This document shows, in pieces, positions 3,907-33,577 of a stretch of 64,000 nucleotides of DNA. Every line of letters starts with the position of its first letter. Positions within the stretch are counted from its first letter, which is position 1. The notes under the pieces are model-generated. The model saw only the letters and a list, made by a program, of their open reading frames with translations. It was not told where the DNA came from and did no database searches. A program made the translations under genes and the position numbers. The stretch is from positions 1,638-65,637 of the forward strand of contig JAENYQ010000007.1 of NCBI GenBank assembly GCA_016841675.1. Reading direction: 5' to 3'. Source of the stretch: Desulfotomaculum sp. Its GTDB lineage: Bacteria; Bacillota; Desulfotomaculia; Desulfotomaculales; Desulfallaceae.

Positions 3907-3995
3907 AACTACTTAGGATCATGACTCAGACTTCATAATTCAGAATAAGAGAATGGTTTATCGTCTACGGATCATTCTAAAATTGTGAATACTAT
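3907..3995. repeat. Intergenic repeat family, copy A
   Basis: AACTACTTAGGAT...GAATGGTTTATCGTCT...ATTCTAAAATTGTGAATACT aligns with copies at 49108, 52706 and 58394. Confidence 0.7.
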
Positions 3996-4036
3996 ATATT
4001 AACGAGTGCACGATAAAAATGGCGGGGGAGGTTAAG

Positions 4037-4261: not shown

Positions 4262-4358
4262 TAATGGTTTAGTGCCGGTTATAGGCAGGAAAACCATTTT
4301 TTCTGTCGAATTTCCCCATGATAAACATTATTGGTTTTTCAGGGGGGGTTCTTTTTTT

Positions 4359-5783
4359 ATGCCGGGAATTAAGGCTGCCTTTTTGTTACGGTTAATGTTT
4401 TTATCCCTGGTGTTTATGGTGGCGACTTTTCTATGGCCCCAGGCACCCGCCCTGGCGGATGTGCGGGTAAACCATGATACCGTGCGAGTAGGGATAGCCC
4501 AACAGATGCCCGAGGTTAGGTTAACCTTTCAGGGTTGCTATCGGTTGGTGGATGCATATAACAATAGCATAATTGCTGAAACGAACCCTAGTGAAACATG
4601 GACCGTTGCTAACGTGGGCGGGTTTACAGTATTAAACCGGAACGGCAATAATCAAGGCCTGTATAAAGGCTCCCTTCGAGCCGAGGAGATTAAAGCCGAG
4701 CAGAGTATCCTTTCGGGCGGGGGAATTCTACAGCAGAAAGATTCGCTGTCCGGGCTGGCCGTGTTAAGTGCCGGAAGCGGTCTGCGCTACATCAATGACT
4801 CCGGAGACTTGCGGGCGCTGGATGGTAACGGCAGGGTTACAGCTTTGTCCCAAGGTGGATTGAACCTGTTTGGTATAGAAAAGTACGGACGCATCGCCCG
4901 TTACCGTGGTAACGTTGAGATAATGCCGGCCGGTGCAGGGTTAACGGTAATCAACGAACTGTCCATGGAACATTACCTTTATGGTGTGGTGCCGGCGGAA
5001 ATGCCCGCATCTTTCCCCTTGGAGGCACTTAAAGCCCAGGCTGTGGCAGGACGCACTTATGTAATTGCTCAGTTGGGCAGTTATGGGAGCCAGGGGTTTG
5101 ATGTGCTGGATAATCAGCAAAACCAGGTTTATCAGGGCTATGACGGGGAAAACCCTCAAACAACGCGGGCAGTGGATGAAACTGCTGGAAAGGTGCTTGT
5201 TTACAAAGGCCAACTCATTTCAGCATTTTTTCACTCTTCCAGCGGTGGGCACACGGAAAATTGTGAGGACGTGTGGAGGGATTCACTGGGGTATATTCGT
5301 GCCCGGGAAGATCCCGCAGACTTCAATAATAAATACTATAATTGGACGGTTGCTTATTCATTAGAGCAATTAACACGTGTAGTTAATGATAAATTAAAGA
5401 GTTTTTCAAATCCGGGTCCTTACCCTCAATTTTCGCTGGTTACCGATATCAAGGAAGTGCAACGCACTTCATCCGGGCAGCGTGTAAAACGGCTATTAAT
5501 CGAAGGCTGTGACGCTGCAGGAAATCCCATGCAGGTGGATATAAACAACTCCGACCGGGTGCGTGTTGTCCTGGGACTGAACAGTGCCCTTTTCTCGATG
5601 CAAAAAGAAATAGATATTAATGGAATGCTGAGCGGTGTGGTCATTAATGGCAGCGGTTTGGGACACGGGCTCGGGATGTCTCAGTGGGGTGCGTCAGGCT
5701 TGGCTATGGAAGGTTATAATTACCAAGATATTTTGCAATACTATTATACAGGTGTCGACATGTTAAATAACTATGGGGGTTGA
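4359..5783 (+). CDS. spoIID: Stage II sporulation protein D (SpoIID/LytB domain lytic transglycosylase)
   Basis: Signal peptide after ATG 4359 (RBS AGGGGGGG). The EHYLYGVVPAEMP...AQAVAGRTY...FHSSSGGHTE motifs are diagnostic of SpoIID. Confidence 0.88.
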   Translation: MPGIKAAFLLRLMFLSLVFMVATFLWPQAPALADVRVNHDTVRVGIAQQMPEVRLTFQGCYRLVDAYNNSIIAETNPSETWTVANVGGFTVLNRNGNNQGLYKGSLRAEEIKAEQSILSGGGILQQKDSLSGLAVLSAGSGLRYINDSGDLRALDGNGRVTALSQGGLNLFGIEKYGRIARYRGNVEIMPAGAGLTVINELSMEHYLYGVVPAEMPASFPLEALKAQAVAGRTYVIAQLGSYGSQGFDVLDNQQNQVYQGYDGENPQTTRAVDETAGKVLVYKGQLISAFFHSSSGGHTENCEDVWRDSLGYIRAREDPADFNNKYYNWTVAYSLEQLTRVVNDKLKSFSNPGPYPQFSLVTDIKEVQRTSSGQRVKRLLIEGCDAAGNPMQVDINNSDRVRVVLGLNSALFSMQKEIDINGMLSGVVINGSGLGHGLGMSQWGASGLAMEGYNYQDILQYYYTGVDMLNNYGG

Positions 5784-5804
5784 TTACCGGAAAGTGGCTG
5801 CCGC

Positions 5805-7966
<2,162 letters not shown>

Positions 7967-8111
7967 CTTGAACTGGGCTGCGGCAGTTAGGGAAAGTCCT
8001 TTGAATTTGCATGATCCACTTTTTAACACCGCAAAAATAAAAAAAGGGAAATGCCCGGTAATAAAGAATAAGTAATATGTTTTGAATCCATGCAGAAAGG
8101 AGGTTAATGGT

Positions 8112-8399
8112 TTGCCTGAATCCACAATTGGTATTATATATATAGTCGGTCTGTTTGCTTTGTTATGGTTTCTCATGATTCGGCCTCAGCAACAACGTCA
8201 GAAAAAGCACCAGGAGATGGTAAAAAACCTTGGCGTTAACGACAATATCGTCACCGCAGGGGGCTTATATGCTACCATAGTTAAAGTAAAAGAAGATAGC
8301 TTCGTGATCAGGATCGGTGACAACGTGCGAGTCGAAATTTTAAAGCACGCCATATCTCAGAAAAGAACTACTGAAGTTGGGGAAAACGATAAGGTATAA
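8112..8399 (+). CDS. yajC: Preprotein translocase subunit YajC
   Basis: TTG at 8112 lies 7 nt after AAGGAGG. WFLMIRPQQQRQKKHQEM motif. The track start at 8082 is probably too far upstream. Confidence 0.85.
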   Translation: MPESTIGIIYIVGLFALLWFLMIRPQQQRQKKHQEMVKNLGVNDNIVTAGGLYATIVKVKEDSFVIRIGDNVRVEILKHAISQKRTTEVGENDKV

Positions 8400-8518
8400 T
8401 ATTATTGAGTAGGCCCCGAGTCTACTCTTTTTATTGGTTTATCTTCGCACAAATTGATGGGTAAAAACCCCATCTGAACCAAGTTTTCTTTATCTTTTGC
8501 GGCTGAGGAGGTCTGGGT

Positions 8519-9178
8519 TTGGTCGTTCTGCAGGACGTCAAATGTAACCCGGTTGTAGACAGTTTTATTCGAAAGGGCAACGAGCACCTTGGAGTGTTGG
8601 GCTTTACAGAGCACAGTTACCGCCATGTGAACTTGGTATCCAGCATTGCCAAGAATATCCTGGCCAAGCTGGGGTACAGCGAACGTGAAACCGAATTGGC
8701 CTCCATAGCCGGTTACCTGCATGATATCGGTAACGTGGTCAGCCGAAACGACCATGGAATATCGGGTGCCACGATTTCTTGTTCACTGCTGCTGCAAATG
8801 GGCATGGATCCTGAGGAAGTAGCCGTGGTCATATCCGCCATTGCCAATCATGAAGAAGATTACGGGCAGCCTGTTAATACCGTGGCCGCGGCTCTAATTA
8901 TGGCGGACAAGTCCGATGTGCATCGTTCCCGGGTGCGCAACCAGGATTACGCCACCTTTGATATCCATGACCGGGTTAATTATGCTGTGGAGCATTCTTT
9001 TGTTTGGGTAGACGAAAAGAAACGCACTATTACCATGGAACTACAGATTAACACTGAAATATGCCCCGTTATGGAGTATTTCGAGATTTTTTTAACCAGG
9101 ATGATGTTATGCCGACGGGCTGCTGTTTTTTTACGGTGCCAATTTGAGCTGGTGGTCAACGGAAGCAGGCTGTTGTAA
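8519..9178 (+). CDS. HD-domain phosphohydrolase
   Basis: H...HD metal-binding signature (YRHVNLV...AGYLHDIGN). RBS GAGGAGG upstream. Confidence 0.75.
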   Translation: MVVLQDVKCNPVVDSFIRKGNEHLGVLGFTEHSYRHVNLVSSIAKNILAKLGYSERETELASIAGYLHDIGNVVSRNDHGISGATISCSLLLQMGMDPEEVAVVISAIANHEEDYGQPVNTVAAALIMADKSDVHRSRVRNQDYATFDIHDRVNYAVEHSFVWVDEKKRTITMELQINTEICPVMEYFEIFLTRMMLCRRAAVFLRCQFELVVNGSRLL

Positions 9179-9245
9179 ATTAACCGGGCAGTATTTGTAT
9201 TTGAGTTTATGTTTCCTACACCTTATTTATAGGGGGAGAGCCGGT

Positions 9246-10487
9246 ATGAGATGGAGTAAAGTACTGACCCTGGCTGTTATATTGGTCATAGTAATTGCCT
9301 TGGGTTTAACGGCAGCGGCTCCGCTGTCGATTTTTAAAGATATAAAATGGCTACCTTGGGGCAAAGAGATTATCCTAGGCTTGGATCTACAGGGCGGGGT
9401 GCACGTAGTGCTTGAGGCTAAGGACACACCGGAAGCCGAGGTTACCGATGACAGCCTTAAACGAGCGGTGGCTATCTTGGAGAACCGGATTAACGAAACA
9501 GGCGTGGCTGAACCAATTATCCAGCGCCAGGGGGAACGTCGGATTATAGTGGAACTGGCGGGTATTGATGATCCGGAGAAGGCTGTTCGGGACATGATTC
9601 AACCTGCTTACCTGGAATTTAAGACGGTGGAAGGTGAGACCATCGTTACCGGCAGCGACCTGAAAGACGCCATTGAAAGCCGTGACCCCACATCCGGCCA
9701 GGTCACTGTCAACATTGAATTTAATTCGGAGGGCACCAAAAAGTTTGCCCAAGCCACTGCTGCAAATGTGGGGCGGCAGATTGGTATTTACCTGGACGGT
9801 GATTTACTGCAAAACCCTGTGGTAAATGAGCCTATCCCAAGTGGCAAAGCGCAAATTAGTGGTTATGCGGACCTGGAAGAAGCGCACACCATTGCCATTT
9901 TGCTTCGTTCCGGTGCCCTGCCGGTGCAACTGGACGTGATGGAAAAACGCACCGTCGGCCCTCAATTAGGCCAGGATTCTCTGGACCGGTCTATTAACGC
10001 CGGTATCGTGGGCTTGATTGCTATCCTGGTGTTCATGATTGTTTACTACCGGGTTCCCGGGTTTATTGCCGCTATTGCACTGACTATCTATGCGTTAATT
10101 GTTTTCGCCATTTTTATCGGTATCCATGCCACCATGACTTTACCGGGTATTGCCGGTTTCCTGCTGTCGCTGGGGATTGCGGTGGATGCCAACGTTATTA
10201 TATTCGAGCGCATTAAAGAAGAACTACGTTCGGGTAAAAGTACTCGTTCCGCTATTGATGCCGGGTTTAAGCGCGGTTTCGTGGCGGTGTTTGACGCCAA
10301 CGTGACCACTTTAATTGCAGCGGTGGTGCTGTATTACTTCGGTTCCGGTCCGATTCGCGGGTTTGCTGTTACCCTGAGTATCGGTATTCTGGCCAGCATG
10401 TTCACTGCGCTCACCATGACCAGGTGGATGCTGCACCTGGCCGCCGCCACCAATCTGGCGAAAAATCCTAAGTATTACGGCGCATAG
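9246..10487 (+). CDS. secD: Protein translocase subunit SecD
   Basis: MRWSKVLTL... start. LGLDLQGG and the C-terminal 6-TM SecD core. Confidence 0.93.
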   Translation: MRWSKVLTLAVILVIVIALGLTAAAPLSIFKDIKWLPWGKEIILGLDLQGGVHVVLEAKDTPEAEVTDDSLKRAVAILENRINETGVAEPIIQRQGERRIIVELAGIDDPEKAVRDMIQPAYLEFKTVEGETIVTGSDLKDAIESRDPTSGQVTVNIEFNSEGTKKFAQATAANVGRQIGIYLDGDLLQNPVVNEPIPSGKAQISGYADLEEAHTIAILLRSGALPVQLDVMEKRTVGPQLGQDSLDRSINAGIVGLIAILVFMIVYYRVPGFIAAIALTIYALIVFAIFIGIHATMTLPGIAGFLLSLGIAVDANVIIFERIKEELRSGKSTRSAIDAGFKRGFVAVFDANVTTLIAAVVLYYFGSGPIRGFAVTLSIGILASMFTALTMTRWMLHLAAATNLAKNPKYYGA

Positions 10488-10500
10488 GGAGGGCTGAAAA

Positions 10501-11367
10501 ATGTTTAATTTCATCAAACACAGAAAGATATGGTACATTATATCAATACTAGTGATTCTGCCCGGACTGGTCTCCCTGGCGCTGCAGGGTTTAAACCTTG
10601 GTATAGATTTTACAGGGGGCAACTTGGTGGAAATAAGAGCCGAAAAGGGTCCTGACATCCAGGAAGTGCGCGGAGTGGTCGAGGGACTGGGGTTTGGTGC
10701 CTCGCGTAATGTACAGAAAAGTGGCGATAGTGATTACCTAGTTAGGACTAGGGAACTTTCCGAGGATGAAAGTGCCACATTGATTTCCACGTTGGACGAA
10801 AAGCTGGGTGGGGTAACCCTGCTGCGTAACGATAGGGTGGGCCCGGTTATGGGACGGGAATTGGCCGTAAAGGCGTTGTTGGCCCTGGTGGTGGCTTCGA
10901 TAATGATGCTGCTCTATATAAGCTACCGTTTCGAACTCAAGCAGGGGATTGCCGCCATTATAGGGCTGTTGCATGACATTCTGGTGGTGCTAGGCATATT
11001 CTCCATCCTCCAATTGGAAGTGGACAGCGCTTTTGTGGCGGCTATACTAACTGTAATCGGTTATTCCATAAATGATACTATTATTATTTTTGACCGCATC
11101 AGAGAAAACCTGAAAAACCGCAAGAAGGGCGAGATGCTGGATGAACTAGTGAACAACAGCATTTGGCAAACACTGGCCCGTTCCATAAACACTGTTTTGA
11201 CGACAATGTTAGTGTTGCTGGCCTTGTACTTCCTGGGTGGCACCACCATTAAGACTTTTGTGCTGGCCATGATCATCGGGATCATTAGCGGGGCGTATTC
11301 ATCAATATGCAATGTCAGTCCAGTATGGGTGGACTTGAAGCTGATGGATAAAAAGAAACGGGCCTAA
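10501..11367 (+). CDS. secF: Protein translocase subunit SecF
   Basis: GIDFTGG motif and the SecF TM core. Confidence 0.93.
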   Translation: MFNFIKHRKIWYIISILVILPGLVSLALQGLNLGIDFTGGNLVEIRAEKGPDIQEVRGVVEGLGFGASRNVQKSGDSDYLVRTRELSEDESATLISTLDEKLGGVTLLRNDRVGPVMGRELAVKALLALVVASIMMLLYISYRFELKQGIAAIIGLLHDILVVLGIFSILQLEVDSAFVAAILTVIGYSINDTIIIFDRIRENLKNRKKGEMLDELVNNSIWQTLARSINTVLTTMLVLLALYFLGGTTIKTFVLAMIIGIISGAYSSICNVSPVWVDLKLMDKKKRA

Positions 11368-11425
11368 ACTACTAGGCTGGTTAGCGAGAGGCACCATAAA
11401 ACTATTTTTAGGTCAGATTTATTAT

Positions 11426-11448
11426 GTCATTGTATACGAAGTGAAGAC
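11426..11448. repeat. Solo half-copy of the GTCAT..GAAG palindromic repeat
   Basis: GTCATTGTATACGAAGTGAAGAC resembles the arms of the 54-bp palindrome at 49166-49219. Confidence 0.4.
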
Positions 11449-11638
11449 ATGCGCCGCGGGCGCTTGCCTCGTCATAGCCCCGAATTTATGGCTTCTTAGA
11501 GCGTAATTAATGATTAGGCGTTTGGCCGGCGCGTTCACCAACAGTATTACCAACATATTAAGAATGATAGTAAACGGGGTTTTAGGCCTCGTTTATTTTT
11601 TTTGTACTGACTGGGCAAATTAAAACAATAATTGGGGG

Positions 11639-11950
11639 TTGGAGCCGGTGAAAGACAAGCAAAATATAGTTTTACAAGCTCTTGAGGGAAGGGTCCGGGA
11701 ACTGGCCATCAACATGGAAAAAATGAAGCTGGCCGAATACGTGGAACTGCTGGAAAACCCGTACCGGTTGTTATACATAAACTTCATCAGCGGTATTGCC
11801 AGGGGACTGGGTATTGCCATCGGGTTTGCCATCCTGGGAGCAATTATTGTGCTCGTTCTACAGCGGTTGGCGGTGCTTAATTTACCTGTAATCGGCGATT
11901 TTATTGCCGATCTGGTTAAAATTGTTCAGGCTCAGTTGGGAAAACAATAA
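11639..11950 (+). CDS. Small membrane protein (DUF5665-like)
   Basis: ORF with a C-terminal TM pair. Start is TTG 11639 or GTG 11648 after GGGGG. Confidence 0.55.
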   Translation: MEPVKDKQNIVLQALEGRVRELAINMEKMKLAEYVELLENPYRLLYINFISGIARGLGIAIGFAILGAIIVLVLQRLAVLNLPVIGDFIADLVKIVQAQLGKQ

Positions 11951-11965
11951 TCGTGGGGGTAAAAG

Positions 11966-12631
11966 ATGAAACAGGAATTGATGAATCATTTCAAACGCGA
12001 ACTGGAACAGGAAAAACAAAGGAATATAGAATTAAAAAAGCATATCGACGACGGGGGGTTGGGTACCTCACTTTCTGATTCTGTGGAGGAATTATCCGCT
12101 TACGACCAGCATCCCGCTGATATAGCCAGCGAAGTGTTTGAGCGGAGTAAGGATATGTCCCTTCGTGAAGACGCGCAAATTAAACTTAATGCCATAGACC
12201 ATGCTTTTAAACGCATGAACGAAGGTACTTATGGAAAATGCGATATGTGCGGCCGGGAGATCCCGGTAGAACGACTGGAAGCGCTACCTTATACCACTCA
12301 GTGCGCGGATTGTCACAACCGTTACGAGGAAGTACCTAACCGCATTAATGTGCGACCGGTGGAAGAAGATATACTGGAACCTCCCTTTGCCAGGACCACC
12401 GGTCAGCAAGAAGGTACTATGTACGATACGGAAGACGCCTGGCAGGAGTTAGCCAAGTGGCAGGAGCATTCACCCCATTCAGGGGCCGGTTCTTATTACG
12501 GCGGCGGCAGCGCCGATGAGGAGGCCGTGGGTTACACTGAACTGGTGGATCATATCCCTTACGAGGTAGGGGATGACGGTATTATTTACGAGGAAACCCG
12601 TGGTACTGATGATGAGGATCCGCCCAGCTAA
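11966..12631 (+). CDS. DksA/TraR C4 zinc-finger protein (YteA-like)
   Basis: CDMCGREIPVERLEALPYTTQCADC zinc-finger motif. YteA-like N-terminal coiled region. Confidence 0.8.
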   Translation: MKQELMNHFKRELEQEKQRNIELKKHIDDGGLGTSLSDSVEELSAYDQHPADIASEVFERSKDMSLREDAQIKLNAIDHAFKRMNEGTYGKCDMCGREIPVERLEALPYTTQCADCHNRYEEVPNRINVRPVEEDILEPPFARTTGQQEGTMYDTEDAWQELAKWQEHSPHSGAGSYYGGGSADEEAVGYTELVDHIPYEVGDDGIIYEETRGTDDEDPPS

Positions 12632-12710
12632 AACATCGCCGTGGGGTTGCATCACATAGAGGACCAGCGCAAGCGCTGATTTCTAACATACCATTTATTG
12701 CCCGTAATTA

Positions 12711-12739
12711 TTGAACGTAATGGCAACATATGTTATATT
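12711..12739 (+). promoter_or_regulatory. Sigma-A-type promoter TTGAAC-17-TATATT
   Basis: -35 at 12711-12716, -10 at 12734-12739. The predicted start falls at the 5' edge of the structured leader. Confidence 0.5.
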
Positions 12740-12745
12740 GAAATG

Positions 12746-12850
12746 AATGCACTGTCAGGCCGGATTCGAAAACCGGCCGGGCCGATACGGCAGCGGTTAT
12801 GCCCGCGGGACTTCATCTTAGCCTGGATAAAGATGATGGCCCCGGGCATT
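12746..12850 (+). promoter_or_regulatory. Candidate czcD-motif (NiCo-type) metal riboswitch leader
   Basis: Closing helix AAUGC/GCAUU (12746-50 / 12846-50) plus three hairpins (GGCCGG/CCGGCC 12758-78; GGGC..GCCC 12780-12805; UCAUCUU/AAGAUGA 12813-36). Lies directly upstream of a CDF exporter. Confidence 0.45.
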
Positions 12851-12896
12851 GATTTTACTTTTGGGCATTATTTTTAGATTTAGGGGAGAGAGTTTT

Positions 12897-13877
12897 ATGG
12901 ACCCGCGGGAAAAAGTAAAAGTTGCCCGCTTATCAATTATATCAAATACTTTTTTAACGGCAGGTAAGCTTGCAGTTGGTTTGTCCATGAATTCCATCGG
13001 TGTCATTTCGGAGGCGATACACTCTGGCCTCGATCTGGTAGCATCGGTAATCGCTTACGCTTCAGTGCGAGAATCAAACAAGCCGGCTGATGACCAGCAT
13101 CGCTACGGGCACGGCAAGTTTGAGAACCTGGCGGCTATAATTGAAGCTGTGCTAATAGTTGCGGCTGCCGCCCTGATCGTTAAGGAAGCAGTGCCCAAGC
13201 TTTATGAATCCACCGCGATAAAGTCGCTGGGTTTAGGAATGATGGTAATGGGTATTTCAGCGGCAGTGAACTTGTATGTTTCATCACGGTTGATGCACGT
13301 AGCTAAGCAAACCGATTCCCCCGCCCTAGCTGCCGATGCCTGGCACCTGCGCACCGATGTAATGACCTCGCTGGGAGTTCTGGCCGGCATCGCCGCCATT
13401 AAACTAACCGGACTATACATCATTGACCCTATTATAGCTATAGCTGTGGCGTTATTAATATTAAAAGCGGCGTACGACCTGATGCGTGAGTCGGTGGGCA
13501 GTATCCTTGACGTGAGGCTGCCGGACTGTGACGAATTAGCAATAAAAGAAGTACTAGAGGGGTATGCCGGCCTGTACGTGGACTACCGTAATCTGCGCAC
13601 TCGCAAGGCAGGTCCGGAGAAACATGTTGATTTTAATCTTGTTGTGCCCCGAGGCAAGCAAATAGTGTCCATCCATGCTTTGTGTGATAATATTGAGCAA
13701 GACTTGCGCAAACGGCTGCCCGCACTGCAGGTTATTATCCACCCCGAACCCTGTATGCCGGTAAAAGGTGATTGCGAACTGTGTCATATAAGATTGGTAT
13801 ACCGCCAGGAAGGTGACAGCGTCGGGTGCTGCGATGTATGCGCAGATTGCCATCCCGGGGATGAAAAAAAGAACTAA
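12897..13877 (+). CDS. Cation diffusion facilitator (CzcD-like) metal exporter with Cys-rich C-terminal tail
   Basis: ATG 12897 after GGGGAGAG. CDF motifs (HSGLDLV, AWHLRTDV). Tail CELCH...CCDVCADCH. Confidence 0.88.
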   Translation: MDPREKVKVARLSIISNTFLTAGKLAVGLSMNSIGVISEAIHSGLDLVASVIAYASVRESNKPADDQHRYGHGKFENLAAIIEAVLIVAAAALIVKEAVPKLYESTAIKSLGLGMMVMGISAAVNLYVSSRLMHVAKQTDSPALAADAWHLRTDVMTSLGVLAGIAAIKLTGLYIIDPIIAIAVALLILKAAYDLMRESVGSILDVRLPDCDELAIKEVLEGYAGLYVDYRNLRTRKAGPEKHVDFNLVVPRGKQIVSIHALCDNIEQDLRKRLPALQVIIHPEPCMPVKGDCELCHIRLVYRQEGDSVGCCDVCADCHPGDEKKN

Positions 13878-18418: not shown

Positions 18419-19006
18419 TTGAAAACAGAAACAATTGTTTCTAAAATAAAAAGCGGAGATACTCAGGCACTCAGATTTGTTTACGAACTGTTTTACAAGC
18501 CTGTTTACCAGGCAGCTTATTATATTACCAATGACACCGGACTTGCCGAAGATACTGTCCACGAAGTCTTTCTAAAGATTCAATACAAAATAAATCAGCT
18601 TGAAGACCCCTTCAAGCTGGAGGCTTGGTTGTGCCGTATGGCTACAAACACAGCCCGGGACATTATCCGCCACCGTTCAAGGAGCACACTATTTGCTGAG
18701 GCCCGGGGTATATACTCAGATAACCAGTTGTTCTCCCCGGACACCATCTTATTAGAAAATGAAGAAAAGCAGGCTATTAAACAACAGATTGATGGCCTTC
18801 AACTGGAACACCGGCAGGTAATATATCTAAAATATTATAGGGAAATGTCATACGAGGAAATAAGCACAGCCCTGGGTATACCGGTGGGAACCGTCAAGTC
18901 CCGGCTTTTTCACGCCAGGCAGGAGATTAAAAAACTGATAGAACCTAAAGGCAGTTTCAAACGTCGTAGTATATTCATAGATCCGGAAGAGGTGAAACAA
19001 TCATGA
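18419..19006 (+). CDS. ECF-type RNA polymerase sigma-70 family factor
   Basis: Region 2 and region 4 (MSYEEISTALGIPVGTVKSRLFHARQ). TTG start. 4-nt overlap with the anti-sigma gene. Confidence 0.88.
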   Translation: MKTETIVSKIKSGDTQALRFVYELFYKPVYQAAYYITNDTGLAEDTVHEVFLKIQYKINQLEDPFKLEAWLCRMATNTARDIIRHRSRSTLFAEARGIYSDNQLFSPDTILLENEEKQAIKQQIDGLQLEHRQVIYLKYYREMSYEEISTALGIPVGTVKSRLFHARQEIKKLIEPKGSFKRRSIFIDPEEVKQS

Positions 19007-19785
19007 AACACTATTCTGAAACCGAACTGGATAAAGTAATCAAAGAAACAGTATGCGAAATGGTGGATTCAGTTACCCCGCCCCCACTGGAAGAATCATG
19101 GGTAAGGTTTGATAAAAAGCTTAAAGAGCAGCACAAAACTGATAATCAAAGAAGAAAGAAACTTTTATATTTGCGTCTGGCTGCCTCTGCCGGCGTGATT
19201 ATCATTTTAGCCGGCGCCTTTGCCATATCCGTTCCGGGAACGGCCCGGGCCATAGGGGAAAAGATACTTTATACGGTAGAGACCCTGCTTGGCGGTACTC
19301 AGATAAATATCAGCACTGGATACCGGCACAATGAACCCGGTCAATTGTCTCCACCGCCAAATGAAGGGTTTACAGAGATCCCCATTGAAGAGGAGAGAAT
19401 TGTTTCCCTGGAAGAGGCGAAAACGGTTTCCCCTTTTCCGGTCACAATTCCTGAATATATCCCCGCCGGCTATACCCTTGATCAGGTTAAATTTCAGCCA
19501 ATGAGCAAACCCGTGGCCAGGATCAGCCTCAATTATAATAGCCCCGATGCAAATTACATTGTGCTTGAAGAGATGAATGTACCGGAGGGATATGTTCAGG
19601 GATACGGATATGATATTGAAGACGCTGTCACAGAGGATATCGAGGTGGGGAAAAACAGTGGCAAAATGATTTTATTCAAAAATGATATGATTCGAATGAC
19701 GTGGATAAATAACAGTGTATTGTTTACCCTGGAAGGGAAGATATCAAAAGAGAATGCTATAAAAATAGCCGAGTCCATGAAATAA
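19003..19785 (+). CDS. Membrane anti-sigma factor with DUF4367-like extracytoplasmic domain
   Basis: Translationally coupled to the sigma gene. Single TM (LRLAASAGVIIILAGAFAI). C-terminal domain resembles DUF4367. Confidence 0.7.
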   Translation: MKHYSETELDKVIKETVCEMVDSVTPPPLEESWVRFDKKLKEQHKTDNQRRKKLLYLRLAASAGVIIILAGAFAISVPGTARAIGEKILYTVETLLGGTQINISTGYRHNEPGQLSPPPNEGFTEIPIEEERIVSLEEAKTVSPFPVTIPEYIPAGYTLDQVKFQPMSKPVARISLNYNSPDANYIVLEEMNVPEGYVQGYGYDIEDAVTEDIEVGKNSGKMILFKNDMIRMTWINNSVLFTLEGKISKENAIKIAESMK

Positions 19786-20652: not shown

Positions 20653-21881
20653 ATGAAGCGTACACAAAACGAGAAGATTTCGCAAATCAAAATTGAAACT
20701 TTGGTGGTTGGAATCGACATTGGTAAAGAAAGCCATTATGCCAGAGCCTTTGATTACAGAGGGATTGAGCTGGCCAAGCTGCTGAAATTAGCAACACGGC
20801 GGAAGGATTTATACTCCTGACCCGATGGATGCAGGACACATGTAAGCAGCATGAAAAGACAGAAGTCATCGCTGGCTTTGAGCCTACTGGACATTACTGG
20901 TTTACATTGGGAGACCATCTCAAACGCCAAGCCATAAACCGGCCATAGTCAACCCATTCCATGTCAAACGAACCAAGGAACTGGATGATAACAGCCCCAC
21001 CAAGAATGACCGCAAATCCGAAGACCATCGCCATGTTAGTGAAAGACGGACGCTACCGGGAGGTATACATCCCGGACGACATCTATCAGGAACTACGCGA
21101 AGCGGTGGCTGAAAGAGAGCGGCTGCAAAAGCAGCTAACCGCTATCCACAATAGGGTTGTTCGCTGGCTGGATATCCGGTTTCCAGAGTTTGAAGGCGTA
21201 TTCAAGAAATGGACAGGAAAAACGGCGCTTCTGACGCTTCGAATGTTTCCAACACCAGCCAAGGTTTTTGAAGCGGGCGAGGACAAAATACTGGCCATTT
21301 GGCGGACAGTTGTAAAGCGCTCCGTAGGCATAAAAAGAGCGCAGGCACTGGTCAAAGCTGCAATCAATAGTATTGGCAGAACCAATGGCCATGTAGCTTC
21401 AGAAGCCAGCCTGCAGAACCTGCTCGCCGAATACGATTTGTACCGTGCCCAGCATGAACGCTTGGAACAATTGATGTGGGAATTGCTGCTTCAGGTACCG
21501 AATGCAGTAAAACTTCTGAAAATCAAGGGAGTTGGGTTGGTTACGGCTACAACCTTTATTGGTGAAAGCGGGGATATCCACAGGTTCGAACACCCCCGTC
21601 AAATACAAAAAATGGACGGTTGTAACCTGGTAGAGAACAGCTCCGGCAAACACAAAGGAAAGACCACCATCAGTCACCAGGGGGCGGAAGCGATTAAGGC
21701 ATGGGCTGTTCATGGCCATGATTGAACAAGGGAAAAAAACCCGCTAAACAAGATGCAATCCATTGTCGTCCTCTGTGGAAAACTCATCAGGGTATTCTAC
21801 GCCATTCTGAGCAAGGCCGTTAACTACAATCCAGAGAAGATGATGGGCGATATTCAACAGTCGGTGAAGATAGCCGCATAA
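20653..21881 (+). pseudogene. IS110-family transposase, multiply frameshifted
   Basis: N-terminal VGIDIGKESHYA (DEDD), then EPTGHYW, VNPFHVKRTKE and C-terminal GVGLVTATTFIGESGDIHRF...CGKLIRVFYAIL in at least 4 different frames. Confidence 0.8.
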
Positions 21882-23498: not shown

Positions 23499-23828
23499 TC
23501 ACCCGACCACTCCCCGTTGCCGGTCAAAGTCCGCCAGCACCCTGGCAATATGGGTTTCTTCGATCACCTCGTGACCCCGTTGGGCCGCATCGTGGATGGC
23601 CTGGCTACAGATTTAGTTGATAATACGCGGGATGCCTTGACCAGCGGCATGGACCAGGGACATAACACTATCGGCAAAAACCGGGGCCGCCATGCCGGCT
23701 ATCTTCATCTGATGGCGGATGTAATTAGCAGTCTCCTCCGGGCTGAGCCCTCCCAGGTGATACTGCAGTGGGATCCGCTGGGTGATAGCCTCGTACTTTT
23801 TAAGCCGTAAAGTCCGCCGCAGTTCGGG
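23499..23828 (-). pseudogene. TniB/ExeA-like AAA ATPase, C-terminal part (in-frame TAA)
   Basis: ...GQPELRRTLRL...GIPRIIN-stop-ICSQAIHDAA... continues the frame broken at 27367. Confidence 0.7.
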
Positions 23829-23931
23829 CTGCCCATATCCCAGCAATTATTTTATCAACCATAATTCTTCTGAAGTGTTGTAACTCCGAGGAATCTGCTT
23901 TAGACTCCTCGGATAATTTCTGATGACAAAA

Positions 23932-24975
23932 CTATCTGTATAGGAATGGCATCGCATTGGGGAGGGACTGCGGAATCGATTGCATCATTGTATTTTCTAA
24001 TGGTTTGCCGCGTTCATTAAGGTATTTGTTAGCTAATTCTGGCGTAAGCTTGGCGTAAACAACAGTAGAAGAAATCGATGCATGGCCTAAAAACGCCTTT
24101 ATTGCAATAAGTGATTCCCCTGCTTCAAGCATATGAACCGCGATTGAGTGGCGAAATGAGTGCGGCGTGTAGTCGTTCTGTCTAAAAAGCTTCGGATATA
24201 GTTCCCTTGCTCTAACCACATATTTCCGGACAACTTCCTCAACGCAAGAGATTGACATTTGCTCATTGGCCTGGCTTGAGAATAGATGCCGGTCGTAAGT
24301 TGACTTGTTGTTTAAATCGTATTTTCTTACCCGCAAATATTCGGTTATGATTGCGGTACAGCTCGTGGGGATAGTAACTATTCGAGACTTGTTCCCTTTT
24401 CCAGTCAAGCGCACCTTTGTCGGAAAAGACGGCGTTGCTAACGTGATGTCCTTCAAAGTTATGTCGCACAGCTCCTGCGCCCGTGCGCCAGTGGCATATA
24501 ATGCCGCCAGCATCGCGACATCGCGCTGTCCGATCGCTTTTGATGTATCAGGCAGTTTTAGCAGCAATTGAATTTCTTCTTTCGTAAAATATTTTATGAT
24601 ATTATTCTTCGGCTCTTTTTTCTTTGCGGAAGTAATTGCTTCGGAATAGAATGGCAAAGATGCGGAAAAGGATTTCTTGGCGGCATATTTTGCAAACGCA
24701 ATGATCGCGGAGCGGCGAACATTGCGCGTTTTAGCGGTACACTGGCGCTCTTGTTCGAGATGAACAAGAAATTCGTCAATAACGCCGTTTGAGAGCGTTT
24801 CAAACGACACCTTGGTCGGCATGATACCTTTCACATCATCAAGATATCCAAAAAGCAGCCGGAAAGCGTACTGGTACGCTGTTATGGTGTTTGCGCTCAG
24901 CCCCTTGGTAGTAGGCAGGTATTCGGTAAAGAACTCTGACAGCAGACGAGTTAGCTCACCAGGTTTGCTTTTCAC
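23932..24975 (-). CDS. Tyrosine recombinase, third of trio (RitC-like)
   Basis: GTG start overlaps the upstream stop (GTGA). ATGARAQE, HSFRHSIA, LGHASISSTVVY catalytic signature. Confidence 0.85.
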   Translation of the reverse strand: MKSKPGELTRLLSEFFTEYLPTTKGLSANTITAYQYAFRLLFGYLDDVKGIMPTKVSFETLSNGVIDEFLVHLEQERQCTAKTRNVRRSAIIAFAKYAAKKSFSASLPFYSEAITSAKKKEPKNNIIKYFTKEEIQLLLKLPDTSKAIGQRDVAMLAALYATGARAQELCDITLKDITLATPSFPTKVRLTGKGNKSRIVTIPTSCTAIITEYLRVRKYDLNNKSTYDRHLFSSQANEQMSISCVEEVVRKYVVRARELYPKLFRQNDYTPHSFRHSIAVHMLEAGESLIAIKAFLGHASISSTVVYAKLTPELANKYLNERGKPLENTMMQSIPQSLPNAMPFLYR

Positions 24976-25949
24976 TCGAAATTCACCTCCGGAAACAGAT
25001 TTCCAACGCTCTCTTCCATCCGGGCGTGCGAGTTTTTGTACAGCACATAATTCGTCGTTATGTATTTTTCAGTTCCCGCCAGAGATTCATGTCCAAGATA
25101 TGCCGCAAGTCGTGGTCCAGATTCTTCCAGCGGTCTCCTTTCCGCTTCCGACTTCAAAAACGATTTGAACGTGAAGTAGTGCCTTAAGGTGTGAGGGGAT
25201 ATTATGCGCTCCGATGGCACGCTGCGTACATTTGGGATACCGGCTTGCTCCAAGATTTGCAAGAACCAGAGCCTAAACGTGTTTTGCAGGTATGGACGCC
25301 CTTTTATGCGGACGCTCTCAAACAATAAACTGGCGTCCGAATCATCTCCAATCATGCGCCTATTGTATAATCTGAGCACCTCTGCCAATGAGCTGCTAGT
25401 TGGGACAATTCGCTGCTTGTGGTTTTTGGCTTTCCGTATTGTGATAACTTCAGTATCTAAATCTATGTCACGCCAACAGAGCGAAAGCGCTTCGCCCAGC
25501 CGCAATCCGCAGCCGTAGAGAATCCTGAGTAGCATTGGAAAGACATATGATGTCTCATTTTCTTTGCTTTTGATTGCTGCAAAATTGTCCGCTACGTCAA
25601 TAATGGCTGCGAACTCTTCATCTGAAAAAGTGTACACAACATAATCTGACTGTGTCCGAAACAATTCCGGCTCATACGCAGGGATTTCAAGCGCGCTCAA
25701 GTATCGTGCAAACCTGCGCATGTTGCCTGTGTAATTCCTCTTAGACTTTGGTTTGCACGCAAGAGTCTTCAGCCACCCGGAAACAACCGCTTCCGTCAGT
25801 GCCTTTTGAGATATATTGCTGTTTAATAAATATGCGTCAAGGCTGTTAAACGTAGTCCTGTATTTGCTAGTGTCTTTATCTGCGTTTTCCAGCAGCTTCA
25901 AATAATCATTCATTTCAGCGGCTAGACAGCTGCCATATTGCTTAGGCAT
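24972..25949 (-). CDS. Tyrosine recombinase, second of trio (RitB-like)
   Basis: ATG lies 1 nt after the upstream stop. GLRLGEA, HTLRHYF, LGHESLAGTEKY. Confidence 0.85.
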   Translation of the reverse strand: MPKQYGSCLAAEMNDYLKLLENADKDTSKYRTTFNSLDAYLLNSNISQKALTEAVVSGWLKTLACKPKSKRNYTGNMRRFARYLSALEIPAYEPELFRTQSDYVVYTFSDEEFAAIIDVADNFAAIKSKENETSYVFPMLLRILYGCGLRLGEALSLCWRDIDLDTEVITIRKAKNHKQRIVPTSSSLAEVLRLYNRRMIGDDSDASLLFESVRIKGRPYLQNTFRLWFLQILEQAGIPNVRSVPSERIISPHTLRHYFTFKSFLKSEAERRPLEESGPRLAAYLGHESLAGTEKYITTNYVLYKNSHARMEESVGNLFPEVNFE

Positions 25950-25950
25950 A

Positions 25951-27192
25951 TTACAACGCCCCCTTTCCGCTGGCTAGGTATTCGGCAAATCTGCCGCTCG
26001 CCATTGGGACGTCAAGGGCGCAGGAACGCAGGCTTTCCGTGTCAAGTTTCACATAATGCGTTATGGCGTTAGGATCTTCATGCCCCAGAATGGTTCTGAC
26101 CGCTTCATAAGGCACATTTTCCGCTACGAGACCGCTTGCGAGTGACATCCTGAGGGCATGTGCGCTATGGTGCCTGTCGCCAAACTCGATTCCAGATTGA
26201 CGAAAATGTTTTGCGGCAACCCGGCATATAGCCCCGCTGCTCAATTTCGGCAGCACGCCCTTCTTCAAGCTTTCTCGGCAAGTAAGGAATATATATAGCT
26301 CAACTGAGTCGCCACGCACGTTGTTGATATAGTCTTGCAAGGCTTCCGCTATTTCTGGCAAAAGCGTTAATTGGTTTGCGACCCCTGTTTTTCGTTGTTT
26401 AAACTCAATAATAGCCTTGACAAAATCAACATTTTCGAAGCGCAGGAAACTTATGTCAGAAGAGCGCATGCCCAATCGTGCTGCCAACAAAAGAATCGCA
26501 TAATTACGTTTCCCCACTTCATTTGAACGATCGACGCTTCCGAGTATCGCCTCAATTTCGTCGCTGCTATACACGGAGGGGATACGCTTCCAATAATGCA
26601 TTTGCGGCACTATCCCCGCGTAATTGTATTTGACAATTCCTTCTTTGACCAGGAATCCAAAGAGTTTCCGTATGCAAGCCGCAAACTGAGCTTTGCTTGT
26701 AGCCCGGTCAAACGCTCCCGACAGTGCTTTGGCATCGACGGCATCCCATGATTCTATGCCGTTCCTCGCGAAATCCCTGCATAGCTTTATTGTAAATACA
26801 CGATGTTTGTCAATGGTGCATTGCTTCAAATTTGCTGTCTCCAATGATTTGAGGTAATGCTCAAGCACCTCTTTGAAAGCTTCCGGGCATTCGTAATTCA
26901 CTCGAAGATACGTATACGAATACTTTCCGTCGTCAAGGTACTCATTAAATCGCCGTATGACCAAACGCTGGCGCTGATAACCAGCTTGCTGTAGATACAT
27001 CAGGCGCTCTTCAGACTCCAGAAATTTCTCGCCTATTTCTTGGGTGTATGCTTTATAGCCGTTTGCATTCGCAAAGCGGATCAGCAGATTGATTGTCCCC
27101 CTGTAGTGCCTTGTAATGTCGTGGGTGTAGCCTTTCTCGACAAGAAAGTCAGTAAACCCGTCATTTAGTTCTCTCCAATAACTGATATCCAT
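25951..27192 (-). CDS. Tyrosine recombinase, first of trio (RitA-like)
   Basis: ATG 27192 after GGAGGG. RLGMRSSD, HALRMSLA, LGHEDPNAITHY. Confidence 0.85.
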   Translation of the reverse strand: MDISYWRELNDGFTDFLVEKGYTHDITRHYRGTINLLIRFANANGYKAYTQEIGEKFLESEERLMYLQQAGYQRQRLVIRRFNEYLDDGKYSYTYLRVNYECPEAFKEVLEHYLKSLETANLKQCTIDKHRVFTIKLCRDFARNGIESWDAVDAKALSGAFDRATSKAQFAACIRKLFGFLVKEGIVKYNYAGIVPQMHYWKRIPSVYSSDEIEAILGSVDRSNEVGKRNYAILLLAARLGMRSSDISFLRFENVDFVKAIIEFKQRKTGVANQLTLLPEIAEALQDYINNVRGDSVELYIFLTCRESLKKGVLPKLSSGAICRVAAKHFRQSGIEFGDRHHSAHALRMSLASGLVAENVPYEAVRTILGHEDPNAITHYVKLDTESLRSCALDVPMASGRFAEYLASGKGAL

Positions 27193-27366
27193 AATACCCT
27201 CCAAAACATATTTGTGACATCGGTTGATGTCCAGGAGTATTATAGATTATATATCAGAAATTATCCGAGGAATTTTCATAGAAACTATTGGTTTTTCTAT
27301 GCTTTGACCATTATCGAGGATAGTATAATTGCTGGGATATGGGCAGTTATCTGACTTCTGAGATAA

Positions 27367-27725
27367 CTGACCCACCATGATCAAAGGGAATAGCGAGCAG
27401 GAGTCCATCTGGTGGTTAACCACAAACCTTAATTCTCCCAGCATGGTTTCGCTCATTTCTGTTCCTGACGGGACTCCAGCACATCTACCCAGAGGCGCTT
27501 GGCTTTGGCTGGGGAAAAGGGAGACACTTCACCTACGTACCGTAAGAGTTCCCCGTAGAATCCGCGGGGTTTAAGATTGGATTTAGAAATGTAGATGAAG
27601 AGATACCGCATAGGATCCAGGCTTTGAAACAGACGGCGGGTGAGGAGAGACTTGCTGCTTCCCACCTCGCCGGTTAGAAGACCCAGATAGCGGTTTTCCA
27701 CCATCAGTTGCAAGCGGGCCAACAC
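27367..27725 (-). pseudogene. TniB/ExeA-like AAA ATPase, N-terminal part (frameshifted, interrupted)
   Basis: Degenerate Walker A LLTGEVGSSKS. ...FVVNHQMDSCSLFPLIMVGQ ends at the RIT insertion. Confidence 0.7.
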
Positions 27726-29081: not shown

Positions 29082-29139
29082 GGTGCCTGGTGCAGCTAAA
29101 TTATGACAAATGTGTCGAGATTTAGCTGCACCAGGCACC
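29082..29139. repeat. Perfect 20-bp-arm palindrome at a rearrangement junction
   Basis: GGTGCCTGGTGCAGCTAAAT (29082-29101), an 18-nt loop, then ATTTAGCTGCACCAGGCACC (29120-29139). Confidence 0.95.
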
Positions 29140-29146
29140 TGGAATT

Positions 29147-29712
29147 TTTGCCATATCCGTTCCGGGAACGGCCCGGGCCTATGGGAAAAGATACTTTATA
29201 CGGTAGAGACCCTGCTTGGCGGTACTCAGATGAATATCAGCACTGGATACCGGCACAATGAACACGGTCAGTTGTCTCCACCGCCAAATGAAGGGTTTAC
29301 AGAGATCCCCATTGAAAAGGAGAGAATTGTTTCCCTGGAAGAGGCGAAAACGGTTTCCCCTTTCCCGGTCACAATTCCTGAATATATCCCCGCCGGCTAT
29401 ACCCTTGATCAGGTTAAATTTCAGCCAATGAGCAAACCCGTGGCCAGGATCAGCCTCAATTATAATAGCCCCGATGCAAATTACATTGTGCTTGAAGAGA
29501 TGAATGTACCGGAGGGATATGTTCAGGGATACGGATATGATATTGAAGACGCTGTCACAAAGGATATCGAGGTGGGGAAAAACAGTGGCAAATTGATTTT
29601 ATTCAAAAATGACAGGATTCGAATAACGTGGATAAATAACAGTGTATTGTTTACCCTGGAAGGGAAGATATCAGAAGAGGATACAATAAAAATAGCCGAA
29701 TCCATGAAATAA
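29147..29712 (+). pseudogene. Anti-sigma factor 3' fragment (copy 2, lacks N-terminus and TM)
   Basis: Near-identical to 19219-19785. No sigma gene or cytoplasmic anti-sigma domain upstream. Confidence 0.85.
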
Positions 29713-31967: not shown

Positions 31968-32573
31968 TTAAAATTCCTGTAAAACCCGTAAAAACGCACA
32001 TAAAATTCGGCAACTGTAATGCACCACAATCCGCTGCCTAAGCGACTCATGCACCGGCTTTTCCAAAATAGAGGACAGATAAGGCTGGCCGATAAAAACC
32101 AGGGCAAAGCAATCCAGGCTATCAAAATGAGCATTCATTAGCATCCTAATATCCCGAAAAATACCCGCGTTTAAATACTGACTTTCATCGATAGCCAGAA
32201 TAAATGTTTTACGCTTCTCCTTAAGCAAATAAAAAAGCCGTTCCTGGATATTTCTGAACATAACCGACTTCTTAGTACTGTAATCCAAGCCCAGTTCAAA
32301 AGAAAACTGGTGATAAAACTCGGACACACTCACCGTAGAAAGGCAAATATACGAAAGCCTGAAAAGATTGGGGTTCAAGTTTTTAGCAAAACAGCGCAGG
32401 GCAAAAGTCTTACCCATACCGGGCGGGGCGGTAAAAAGACCGATACCCCGGGTATTTTTCAGATAATCCAGCCGGGAAAGCATCTGCTTAAAATCCCCGG
32501 ACTTAAAAGCATAACTTTTCGGAATGGATTTATCGAAAGGATTAAAAGACAGGCCATAAAAAGAATTAAACAT
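31968..32573 (-). pseudogene. TniB/ExeA-like AAA ATPase (second, distinct copy; aberrant C-terminus)
   Basis: Walker A APPGMGKT, Walker B ILAIDESQ, ...FIGQPYL. The C-terminal third is missing or frameshifted. Confidence 0.7.
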
Positions 32574-33577
32574 CGGAAGGGCCCTCCATCCTGGAATAAT
32601 CAATGGCGTGCACATTATTGCGCTTAGTACGCCCGTTTTCCACCCGGTTGGCGGCCCGGATAGGATAATGTTTACCCTCGAAAAAAATATAAGCATCCTG
32701 CATACAATCGGGCAGATAGCGGATCTCCACCCCTGGACCGGATGAACTGCATGGGCACGTCATAATAAACAGCGCCAATGGAAACCGTAGCATCCAGATT
32801 CACCTTCCTGGTAATGCGGTTCATGAAACAATCATCCAGCCACTGGCGGCTTTGGGGCAGCCGGACATGGCCAATACCCCGCTGATAACGCTCCATAGGC
32901 GTCTCACCAATGGTGCGGTTGAAACTGGTATTGCGCTTACGGACATAATCAGTCAGCAAACGATTGAGCTCCTCCAGCTATGATACACCTGAAGTATCAA
33001 AACCATAAAGCCAGGTATCCTTAATGGTTCTAAAGCTCCGTTCAACCTTCGCCTTGGATGCCCCATCACGAACAGGTGTATGTATTTTTACAATGCCCAG
33101 AGAGCCGCAAATCAGTGTGAGCTGAGCATTGGCATAAGTAGAACCATGATCGATATACAGTTTATTGCAAATCCCGTGGCGGGCAATGGCGTCCTTTAGG
33201 ACAATTTGAAAGTTATAGGCGTTATCGTTACAGAAAAAACGGGCCGCCACAATTAGGCGTGAGTGGTCGTCCATCACATGAATAAGATAAGTGTGCCTGG
33301 ATTTGCCGCCCTCTTTGATGTAGGTGGTATACGACGTATCCGCCTGATACATACCGCCGGGTAAGCCTCTTCAAAAAGCCTTGCGGTCCTTTTGGTTGGG
33401 GTTAACCGTCGCCCTCAGGTCGTTGTGCTTGATAAAACGCTGCACACTGGAAACAGAAACCCCGGATTGGTTAATGAAACCATCCTCAATCAGCTTATGG
33501 TAGATCAAGGTGGCGTTAACCGGGGCGATTAAGGCGAATCGGAAATAGGCCATTAAGAAACATGGAGCACCGATCAT
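32566..33577 (-). pseudogene. rve (DDE) integrase-type transposase, Tn552/TniA-like, in at least 3 frames and 5'-truncated
   Basis: DDE core ...IHVMDDHSR...YIDHGSTY...KAKVERSF... (32978-33352). C-terminal pieces in other frames. HTH fragment at 33371-33545. Confidence 0.7.

Follow-up and report, generated by a model that had tools for sequence, protein, structure and literature searches.

Within a 64-kb stretch of the genome of a Desulfotomaculum sp. (contig JAENYQ010000007.1; the whole stretch is hereafter the window), an inserted unit of 3,538 bp (23829-27366) splits a gene for an AAA ATPase. It carries three adjacent tyrosine-recombinase genes between long inverted repeats. A first-pass annotation, made from the sequence alone, had matched it to the RIT ("recombinase in trio") elements. 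We analyzed the genes, the ends, the insertion site and the relatives of the unit, and it is an intact new member of this known class. RITs are common across bacterial phyla and have been known since 2009; they were reportedly described by Van Houdt (2009 and 2012) and Ricker (2013). The comparison of related copies also leads us to a model for how the element might move.

The element and the gene that it interrupts

The three genes lie on the minus strand in the order ritA (27192-25951, 413 aa), ritB (25949-24972, 325 aa) and ritC (24975-23932, 347 aa). Exactly these three recombinase genes fill the unit, and there is no fourth open reading frame. The ATG of ritA is located 7 nt past a GGAGG sequence (the mechanically called frame, counted from a TTG, has 417 aa). 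A single nucleotide separates the ritA stop codon from the ATG of ritB, and ritB and ritC share a GTGA overlap. This is the number, size and tight packing of genes that the annotation had described. Its claim of complete catalytic signatures also stood: when aligned to the solved structures of XerD and XerA, each of RitA, RitB and RitC showed a full R-K-H-R-H-Y set with every residue, the HxxR motif included, in its proper place. The RitA residues R239, K268, H345, R348, H371 and Y380 are invariant among 36 homologues, as are the catalytic columns of RitC among 38. The Phage_integrase catalytic domain was detected in all three proteins, and a SAM-like core-binding domain in RitC and, weakly, in RitA. 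The ritC product is the most conserved of the trio and the one most like XerC/XerD.

Two hallmarks of RIT proteins are on record, namely two sequential core-binding domains in RitA and an extra conserved C-terminal helix in RitC (PMC8138268). The AlphaFold model of RitA (pLDDT, the predicted local-distance difference score, of 81) displays two four-helix bundles, at residues ~3-86 and 104-183, followed by the catalytic domain. The two halves align weakly to each other (E = 2e-4), and the solved recombinases span only ~290 of its 413 residues. The model lends moderate support to two sequential N-terminal core-binding bundles in RitA, in agreement with the hallmark. RitC runs 34 residues past its alignment with XerD. 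The model of this conserved C-terminal tail is unreliable (pLDDT <50); residues Y318, L319, R322, G323, P343 and L345 within it are invariant in the 38 homologues.

The proteins of the window pair one-to-one, as reciprocal best matches, with RitA, RitB and RitC of Cupriavidus necator pHG1 (E = 5e-27, 1e-19 and 2e-42), whose genes PHG134, PHG135 and PHG136 have been named as a rit trio (PMC2864759). The best cross-subfamily matches to the same trio have E = 1e-6, 2e-8 and 2e-17. Against the NCBIfam models of the XerC/XerD type the best scores were 81, 72 and 168 bits; the resemblance is to XerC, XerD and XerA, far below the cut-offs of ~330. A role in chromosomal XerC/XerD dimer resolution was rejected on these scores and on the location of the genes, which sit on a repeat-bounded insert inside another gene, unlike a single housekeeping XerC/XerD gene. 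The integron integrase was dismissed on scores far under its cut-off (37-73 bits, cut-off 265), as was the gamma-mobile-trio (GmtX/Y/Z), whose GmtY and GmtZ models gave 29.8 bits (cut-off 340) and 20.3 bits (cut-off 600) over ~50-75 residues of RitC only. The family of Tn554, GInt and the strand-biased circularizing elements (SE) does not accommodate the unit either, since a fourth gene of the TnpC/Srap/GinD type is absent and clear terminal inverted repeats are present. The pHG1 pairing and the NCBIfam scores thus place the proteins in the trio subfamilies and not with ordinary phage integrases or Xer. RIT membership follows from the gene order and the one-to-one matches to the pHG1 proteins, together with the full catalytic sets and the two RitA bundles.

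The ends of the unit carry nested repeats, all of them at the positions where the annotation had put them. A 22-mer, CTGCCCATATCCCAGCAATTAT, is found exactly at 23829-23850 and inverted at 27325-27346, its only two occurrences in the window. Such a match was seen in 0 of 100 shuffles, and the repeat extends to 37 nt at 86% identity. Further in, the 18-mer CCTCGGATAATTTCTGAT is exact at 23907-23924 and inverted at 27253-27270, and it extends to 30 nt at 83%. On the ritC side the terminal inverted repeat (23835-23865) holds a half-site resembling an arm of dif, ATATCCCAGCA, and a second TTATC box ~17 nt further in. The subterminal block of this side (23885-23924) comprises a hairpin palindrome with 12-bp arms (23885-23913) and, overlapping it, the 18-mer, inside which is a GGATAA motif. 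On the ritA side the terminal inverted repeat (27310-27340) has the half-site TGCTGGGATAT on the plus strand. Hexamers resembling a promoter, by consensus match, lie at 27191-27243, directly downstream of the ritA-side 18-mer copy; a Rit protein bound at this 18-mer could autoregulate the operon.

The 20-mer TTATCTGACTTCTGAGATAA (27347-27366; hereafter P), which the annotation had described as an imperfect palindrome, stands between the ritA-side repeat and the host sequence. It has the form TTATCT-N8-AGATAA, that is, two back-to-back half-sites, and with the adjacent repeat it makes a dif-like ...GATAA-N6-ATATCC... arrangement. Three copies of a 6-bp sequence accompany these features. The host copy, X1, is GGTCAG on the minus strand (27372-27367), within Gly-Gln codons, and would be the target's own crossover region. 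X2 is an inverted copy (27341-27346, GGGCAG on the plus strand) between P and the ritA-side repeat. X3 (23834-23829, GGGCAG on the host-sense strand) is the 6 bp at the outer edge of the ritC-side repeat, the proposed crossover region of the right junction. The annotation had seen no obvious target duplication, which is literally right, but X1 and X3 do form an imperfect 6-bp direct repeat that flanks the insert.

The interrupted gene lies on the minus strand as N-terminal AAA_22 fragments (27367-27725; Walker A GEVGSSKS), which end in ...LIMVGQ, and a C-terminal fragment of ExeA/TniB-like AAA_22 type (23613-23828), which starts with PELRRTLRL... and continues the N-terminal frame after excision. 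The proposed interruption at ...LIMVGQ/PELRR... (a slash marks insertion points throughout) was borne out by virtual excision: removal of 23829-27366 rejoins one frame, ...DSCSLFPLIMVGQ/PELRRTLRLKKYEAITQRI... The rejoined protein matches AAA_22 and the ExeA-like TIGR03015, and it aligns free of gaps across the junction with an uninterrupted-type homologue from another locus. The host gene is itself decayed: it has lost ~10 residues including Walker B, its frame shifts at 27453-27456, and a premature stop ends it at 23613. No transposase gene is found upstream of it. In relatives such an ATPase gene follows genes for an rve/Mu-transpos_C transposase and a DUF6431 protein (by domain scan for part of these loci and by gene order for the rest), an order that identifies the target as the helper ATPase of a TniA/TniB-type transposon.

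Related copies, target sites and overlaps

RitA homologues were found from 98% identity down. A striking number of them are on contigs of 3.3-3.7 kb, about as long as the element itself, which is what collapsed multi-copy repeats would give. Full-length copies with 92-97% DNA identity are present in Syntrophomonas wolfei subsp. methylbutyratica, in metagenome-assembled genomes of Sedimentibacter and of Eubacteriales, and in several metagenomes; the closest copies are those of Syntrophomonas, Sedimentibacter and other Clostridia. The window holds a single copy, ~3% different from its nearest relatives. One copy of 98% identity (L014, JAHKLX010000118.1) is on a 2.7-kb contig binned as Candidatus Micrarchaeota archaeon, an assignment that is most likely a binning error.

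The full-length copies of the window family (92-97% identity) end in the repeats described above and include the 20-mer, and the inserted DNA corresponds exactly to the span 23829-27366. In all 10 related copies that were aligned, the 18-mer at either end is near-invariant (<=4 substitutions). Variation of the 22-mer between copies is limited to its outermost bases, involving 4 of the 6 bp of the overlap in this family and all 6 across RIT families; we attribute it to the role of these bases as the presumed crossover overlap.

P is one-sided in every copy that carries it and always stands between a terminal repeat and the upstream half of the host gene. P is also on one side in 23 diverse RITs, down to 27% RitA identity, and the motif that occurs twice in each terminal repeat recurs in its arms. 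Homologous 20-mers have the form TTATCC-N8-AGATAA in a family of 64% identity (L002-L007, L017) and TTATCC-N8-GGATAA in a Lachnospiraceae family of 50% (L019-L030). The boundary of P and the repeat reads ...ATAA-N6-(T/A/G)TAT... in 20 of the 23 diverse RITs. In the window this dif-like site is AAGTCAGATAA-CTGCCC-ATATCCCAGCA, the same layout as that of the dif site of E. coli, GGTGCGCATAA-TGTATA-TTATGTTAAAT. An origin of P as host DNA was rejected because its length is not a multiple of 3, it is absent from uninterrupted homologues and it co-varies with the repeat motif of the element. P is, moreover, conserved within families, and on these comparisons it is a part of the element. A crossover within the central 8 bp of P was likewise set aside, as P stays whole on one side. 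In a copy from a fermentation metagenome contig (L098), the ritA end carries inner end sequence of the ritC type, and the terminal inverted repeat is ~100 nt long, which indicates a sequence conversion between the two element ends.

Scanning of metagenome contigs for P, 4 nt and the repeat in succession yielded 12 further junctions, which with the window, L001 and L013 make 15. In 14 of them the insertion directly follows one codon of TniB-like genes, at the end of ...(L/V)(I/V)(L/M)xG(Q/L), with the standard GG-NNNN-P layout; the fifteenth (L097), also from the scan, shares this position, where its host frame has a stop. Three more junctions at this codon (L015, L107 and L108) bring the total to 17. 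Among the 13 of these 17 that could be typed, the end that adjoins the N-terminal half of the host gene is that of ritA in 6 and that of ritC in 7. The target consensus, T-N-A-T-N-c-T-G-G-t-N-G-G-N-C-A-R/, reflects those codon positions that are constrained in the motif. When the element is excised in silico, the ATPase frame is restored in the window and in 5 other copies. The host genes are 26-60% identical in protein, far more diverged than the elements (92-97% in DNA), and the insertions are therefore independent rather than one inherited composite.

In other RIT subfamilies the insertion likewise keeps to one position within a conserved motif of a mobile-element gene. Excision guided by the distance from the two symmetries restores long open reading frames in many distant RITs. 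Copies of the 64% family and of the Lachnospiraceae family are mostly in an ArdC-like gene, after ...VAG(Y/F/L) (ArdC-like ...VAG/..TW), with L017 in a different gene. Further subfamilies occupy fixed motif positions in IstB (Walker A, GPPG/VGKT), IstA and an Rpn-like protein, these three being named by eye from their motifs, and another occupies a second position in TniB-like genes (...EIRF/L...). The subfamily loci are L048, L065 and L077; L035, L042 and L080; L002-L007 and L019-L030; L032; and L081. Two elements with RitA 75% identical to that of the window (L105 and L106) display the same palindrome plan with other overlaps (GGGAGA and GGTGCT) and other target positions, so target choice shifts within ~25% protein divergence. 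The idea that the left arm of the target mimics the element arm was dropped, as no in-register similarity was seen. The insertion point and the target specificity, like the anatomy of the element and the patterns of overlap and orientation, can be read directly in these copies.

Each insertion has three 6-mers: X1 precedes P in the host, X2 follows it in inverted orientation, and X3 lies at the far end. Their variable positions in the window family are the synonymous third bases of GGN CAR. All three were readable in six copies, and we give them here, in the order X1, X2, X3, by their last four bases. The window copy has TCAG, GCAG, GCAG and L103 has CCAA, TCAA, TCAA; L013 has TCAG, TCAG, TCAA and L098 has TCAA, TCAA, CCAG; in L015 and in L094 the three are identical. 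Denoting the target and element versions as Xt and Xp, the pattern (Xt, Xp, Xp) occurs twice, (Xp, Xp, Xt) twice and all-equal twice. A true target-site duplication predicts X1 equal to X3 with X2 different; this arrangement is absent from the window family (0 of 6), and a duplication was rejected on this account. The two overlaps that flank P are mirror images of each other in 11 of 15 copies. The reading of the 6 bp beside P as the probable crossover overlap, and not a target duplication, is well supported by these comparisons, as are the proposed crossover region and the site layout.

Depending on the copy, P adjoins either ritA or ritC. In each of two host genes the element is found in both orientations (L093 and L101; L094 and L096), and within each pair P keeps its phase with respect to the rit genes. 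This phase is constant, whichever end holds P, in 5 of 5 copies of the 64% family and in 5 of 5 Lachnospiraceae copies with the asymmetric spacer TATTTCTC. A constant phase combined with both orientations is the hallmark of a circularly permuted junction in which two alternative crossover points flank P. A phase strictly fixed relative to the element was rejected as a general rule, as it holds in these two families and is split 6:5 in the window family.

Two copies, that of pHG1, a finished sequence, and L004 (span 1-13029), lack P and lie between inverted duplications of the host's downstream flank. In pHG1, a ritC fragment, ritB1 and ritA1 are present on both sides of PHG134-136 as mirror images (L104, 3345-12678). 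Recombination of inverted RIT sites on sister molecules would be expected to give such a product; the arrangement in L004 may be an assembly artefact. The two P-less copies argue that inverted sites do recombine.

A proposed joined-end intermediate and its alternatives

We propose that the element moves by conservative, Xer-like tyrosine recombination and not by a cut-and-paste reaction with target duplication. In the free form the ends would be joined through P in the order repeat arm, overlap, P, inverted overlap, repeat arm, such that two mirror-image dif-like core sites share P. The predicted junction is ...GCTGGGATATGG-NNNN-TTATCT-N8-AGATAA-NNNN-CCATATCCCAGC..., with N8 being CAGAAGTC or GACTTCTG. 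Either core site would swap strands with the 6-bp overlap of the target, here GGTCAG, which encodes the Gly-Gln of ...VGQ/PEL... in TniB/ExeA-like ATPases. The product would run from host through overlap, P, overlap, element and overlap back to host, with the element in one or the other orientation and no duplication. Excision would be the reverse reaction, between the two outer overlaps, and would restore the ...ATGGTGGGTCAGCCCGAACTG... target. Where the overlaps differ, heteroduplex would arise at both junctions, and replication would yield (target, element, element) or (element, element, target); in the window copy, the host GGTCAG would have been kept at the left junction and the GGGCAG of the element at the other two positions. 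RitB and RitC would serve the two half-sites as a catalytic pair of the XerC/XerD kind, and RitA would use its two DNA-binding bundles to hold the inner repeat motif and the subterminal 18-mer.

A junction with two sites would account for the two orientations, for the position of P beside the upstream half of the host gene and for the lack of a duplication. We regard this model, a conservative reaction through a junction intermediate in which either of two mirror-image dif-like sites recombines with the target, as probable. From the same comparisons we infer the 6-bp stagger of cleavage with its exact cleavage points, the joined circular double-stranded intermediate, and the division of labour among RitA, RitB and RitC.

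Several observations weigh against the model. The pattern scan of metagenome contigs gave no joined-end (circle) junction, and of four contigs that were inspected, two of them of about element length, none was circular or had P between two repeats; a mobilome study likewise found no RIT circles (PMC5737581). In the 64% family, three sets of junctions do not fit the two-state pattern of overlaps, two of them having three different overlaps, and L007 has X1 equal to X3 with X2 different, the pattern of a target duplication. The mixed triplets of this family fit junctions that carry two different overlaps from earlier sites. The 6:5 split of the P phase across the whole 97% family means that occasional inversion of P relative to the body of the element must be assumed; one possible route is recombination of the far-end site with the full site next to P. 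The arms of the target have no in-register similarity to those of the element, so resemblance of the arms does not explain the specificity, and a matching target 4.7 kb from the element is unoccupied, so that available sites are not all filled. For the window copy, the cleavage positions, the assignment of proteins to sites and activity itself are proposals drawn from sequence.

The main rival is a single-stranded or hairpin-folded intermediate, with the same crossover region, in which the long palindrome (repeat, overlap, P, overlap, repeat) folds into a stem with a single dif-like site. Only one pair of strands would then be exchanged, and replication would complete the reaction, as happens with CTX phage at dif and with the attC sites of integrons. 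The predicted junction would be a near-perfect palindrome with arms of at least 28 bp, and a base-paired stem would favour the mirror-image overlaps seen in 11 of 15 copies. The lack of a double-stranded circle junction in the scan and in the inspected contigs also suits this reading, as does a report of exonuclease-protected RIT DNA with no detectable circles, for which hairpins were proposed (PMC5737581). Against it stand three points, none of them decisive: both half-sites of the second double-stranded site are well formed in 20 of 23 elements, the overlap patterns are precisely what a full double-strand exchange with heteroduplex would leave, and three complete catalytic sets are unnecessary for a single strand exchange. 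On balance we judge a folded intermediate to be unlikely.

Much less can be said for a trio that is not a transposable element at all. A resident invertible switch, like a shufflon or the Fim inversion system, would have the long inverted repeats and the two orientations at one locus, and the P-less copies of pHG1 and L004 display recombination between inverted sites. Yet the host gene is interrupted in both orientations, P changes ends, which in-place inversion cannot accomplish, the same element occurs in many host copies that are unrelated and across gene families, and no cargo or promoter arrangement would make orientation matter; we consider a switch very improbable. Still harder to credit, and given next to no weight by us, is a single ancient insertion that has travelled with its host transposon, the trio being neither mobile nor site-specific. 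For the Tn6049::RIT composites of Acidithiobacillus, which are nearly identical, this caveat has been raised before (PMC3414803, Van Houdt et al.). It is countered here by elements of 92-97% DNA identity in hosts of 26-60% protein identity, by both orientations even in one host gene with overlaps that differ between copies, and by the many contigs of ~3.5 kb that end at the element ends, as collapsed repeats with differing flanks would.

A separate matter is whether the window copy, intact in appearance, is stranded in the remnant of a dead transposon and is inactive now. It is the only copy in 64 kb, a matching target nearby is free, the copy lies ~3% from its nearest relatives, and the further lesions of the host gene mean that the insertion is not very recent. 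The three full-length reading frames with complete catalytic residues speak for a functional copy, as do 22-mers identical to each other and P and 18-mers that match the family consensus. We find inactivity rather unlikely, though it deserves serious consideration.

The free target belongs to a second, paralogous AAA_22 ATPase gene on the minus strand (31968-32696; ...FIGQ/PYL..., ggccag/cct, at ~32085), within a decayed transposon at 31.9-33.4 kb. Fragments beside it (32566-33352, minus strand), presumably of an rve transposase, have translations that by inspection resemble the transposase of L015. A fragment of an IS110-family transposase (20961-21725) retains Transposase_20 and a partial DEDD_Tnp_IS110, most of the catalytic domain being gone. 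The annotation had called the trio the only intact-looking mobile unit of the island, which holds among the annotated parts of the 20-33 kb stretch; the same stretch also has the IS110-type fragment and the decayed pair of transposase and ATPase genes. Two paralogous DUF4367 genes (18419-19785 and 29110-29712), the first of which follows a gene for an ECF-type sigma factor, bracket the mobile-element debris of the 20-29 kb stretch. This stretch may have entered a sigma/anti-sigma module by insertion, or may have been duplicated together with one.

Significance and comparison with known systems

The mechanism by which RITs mobilise has been described as undetermined (PMC5737581, PMC10214605), and the statement of the first-pass annotation that it is unresolved agrees with this literature (also PMC3414803). 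Residence inside the genes of other mobile elements, with a palindrome near one end, had been noted before (PMC3414803, PMC2864759). Our literature searches found no mechanistic work on RITs and, in the papers covered, no experimental demonstration of their mobility; evidence for mobility comes from the copies of 92-97% identity in host genes and taxa that differ. The papers covered define neither the crossover nor the role of the palindrome, and they do not describe a target rule, a double site like dif, the behaviour of the overlaps or the permutation; Ricker et al. 2013, which lies outside this set, may describe some of them. As for the need for three active-looking recombinases, we know of no explanation by others.

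We extend the model only tentatively, at somewhat short of an even chance, to RITs in general. In such a rule, RITs would form a joined-end junction of two mirror-image dif-like sites that share P, would tolerate mismatches in a 6-bp overlap, and would enter a conserved motif in a gene of another mobile element, as orientation-free and duplication-free "parasites of mobile elements"; the four DNA-binding bundles of the three recombinases would match the four motif copies of each half-junction. The literature covered does not state such a rule. The element and its relatives supply substrates for experiments, namely a 3,538-bp unit with exact ends, a predicted junction, a target of ~18 bp, a 6-bp overlap and natural overlap variants, and with them one can test which of the recombinases makes each cut, whether the reaction passes through a circle or a hairpin, and what decides the choice of target. 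That the conserved coding motifs of other transposons serve as targets amounts to competition between mobile elements, and RITs are a possible source of compact, programmable and duplication-free integrases.

The closest systems are the RITs of C. metallidurans CH34 and C. necator pHG1. They share with the window element the three adjacent, translationally coupled genes in the order A-B-C, each in its own subfamily, and the insertion in genes of other mobile elements (radC of an integrative and conjugative element, the tnpA of IS66, a Tn6049-type transposase). They differ from it in protein sequence (26-29% identity), in the host, which is Firmicutes-type here, and in the target, here one codon of a TniB/ExeA-like ATPase. 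Tn554, GInt and the SE elements also depend on several cooperating tyrosine recombinases, are site-specific and duplication-free, and carry ~6 bp of flank (PMC10214605). They have, in contrast, two recombinases and a small fourth protein (TnpC, Srap or GinD), no terminal inverted repeats, one target orientation, and cargo.

The likeness to XerC/XerD-dif and to the elements that integrate at dif (CTX phage and other integrative mobile elements exploiting Xer, IMEX) lies in the use of "simple" recombinases of the Xer kind, with paralogues for non-identical arms, and in two inverted arms of ~10 bp, ...ATAA and TTAT..., around a 6-bp centre. RITs differ in having three recombinases that are borne by the element, a coding motif with unlike arms as the target, and two back-to-back sites. 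Tn916/Tn1549 and CTnDOT move through a joined-end intermediate and make no target duplication, and their non-identical "coupling" sequences give heteroduplex that is sorted by replication. The overlap pattern of the RIT copies resembles that of these coupling sequences, whereas Tn916/Tn1549 and CTnDOT have one integrase with an arm-binding domain and an excisionase, lack long terminal inverted repeats, carry large cargo and accept looser targets.

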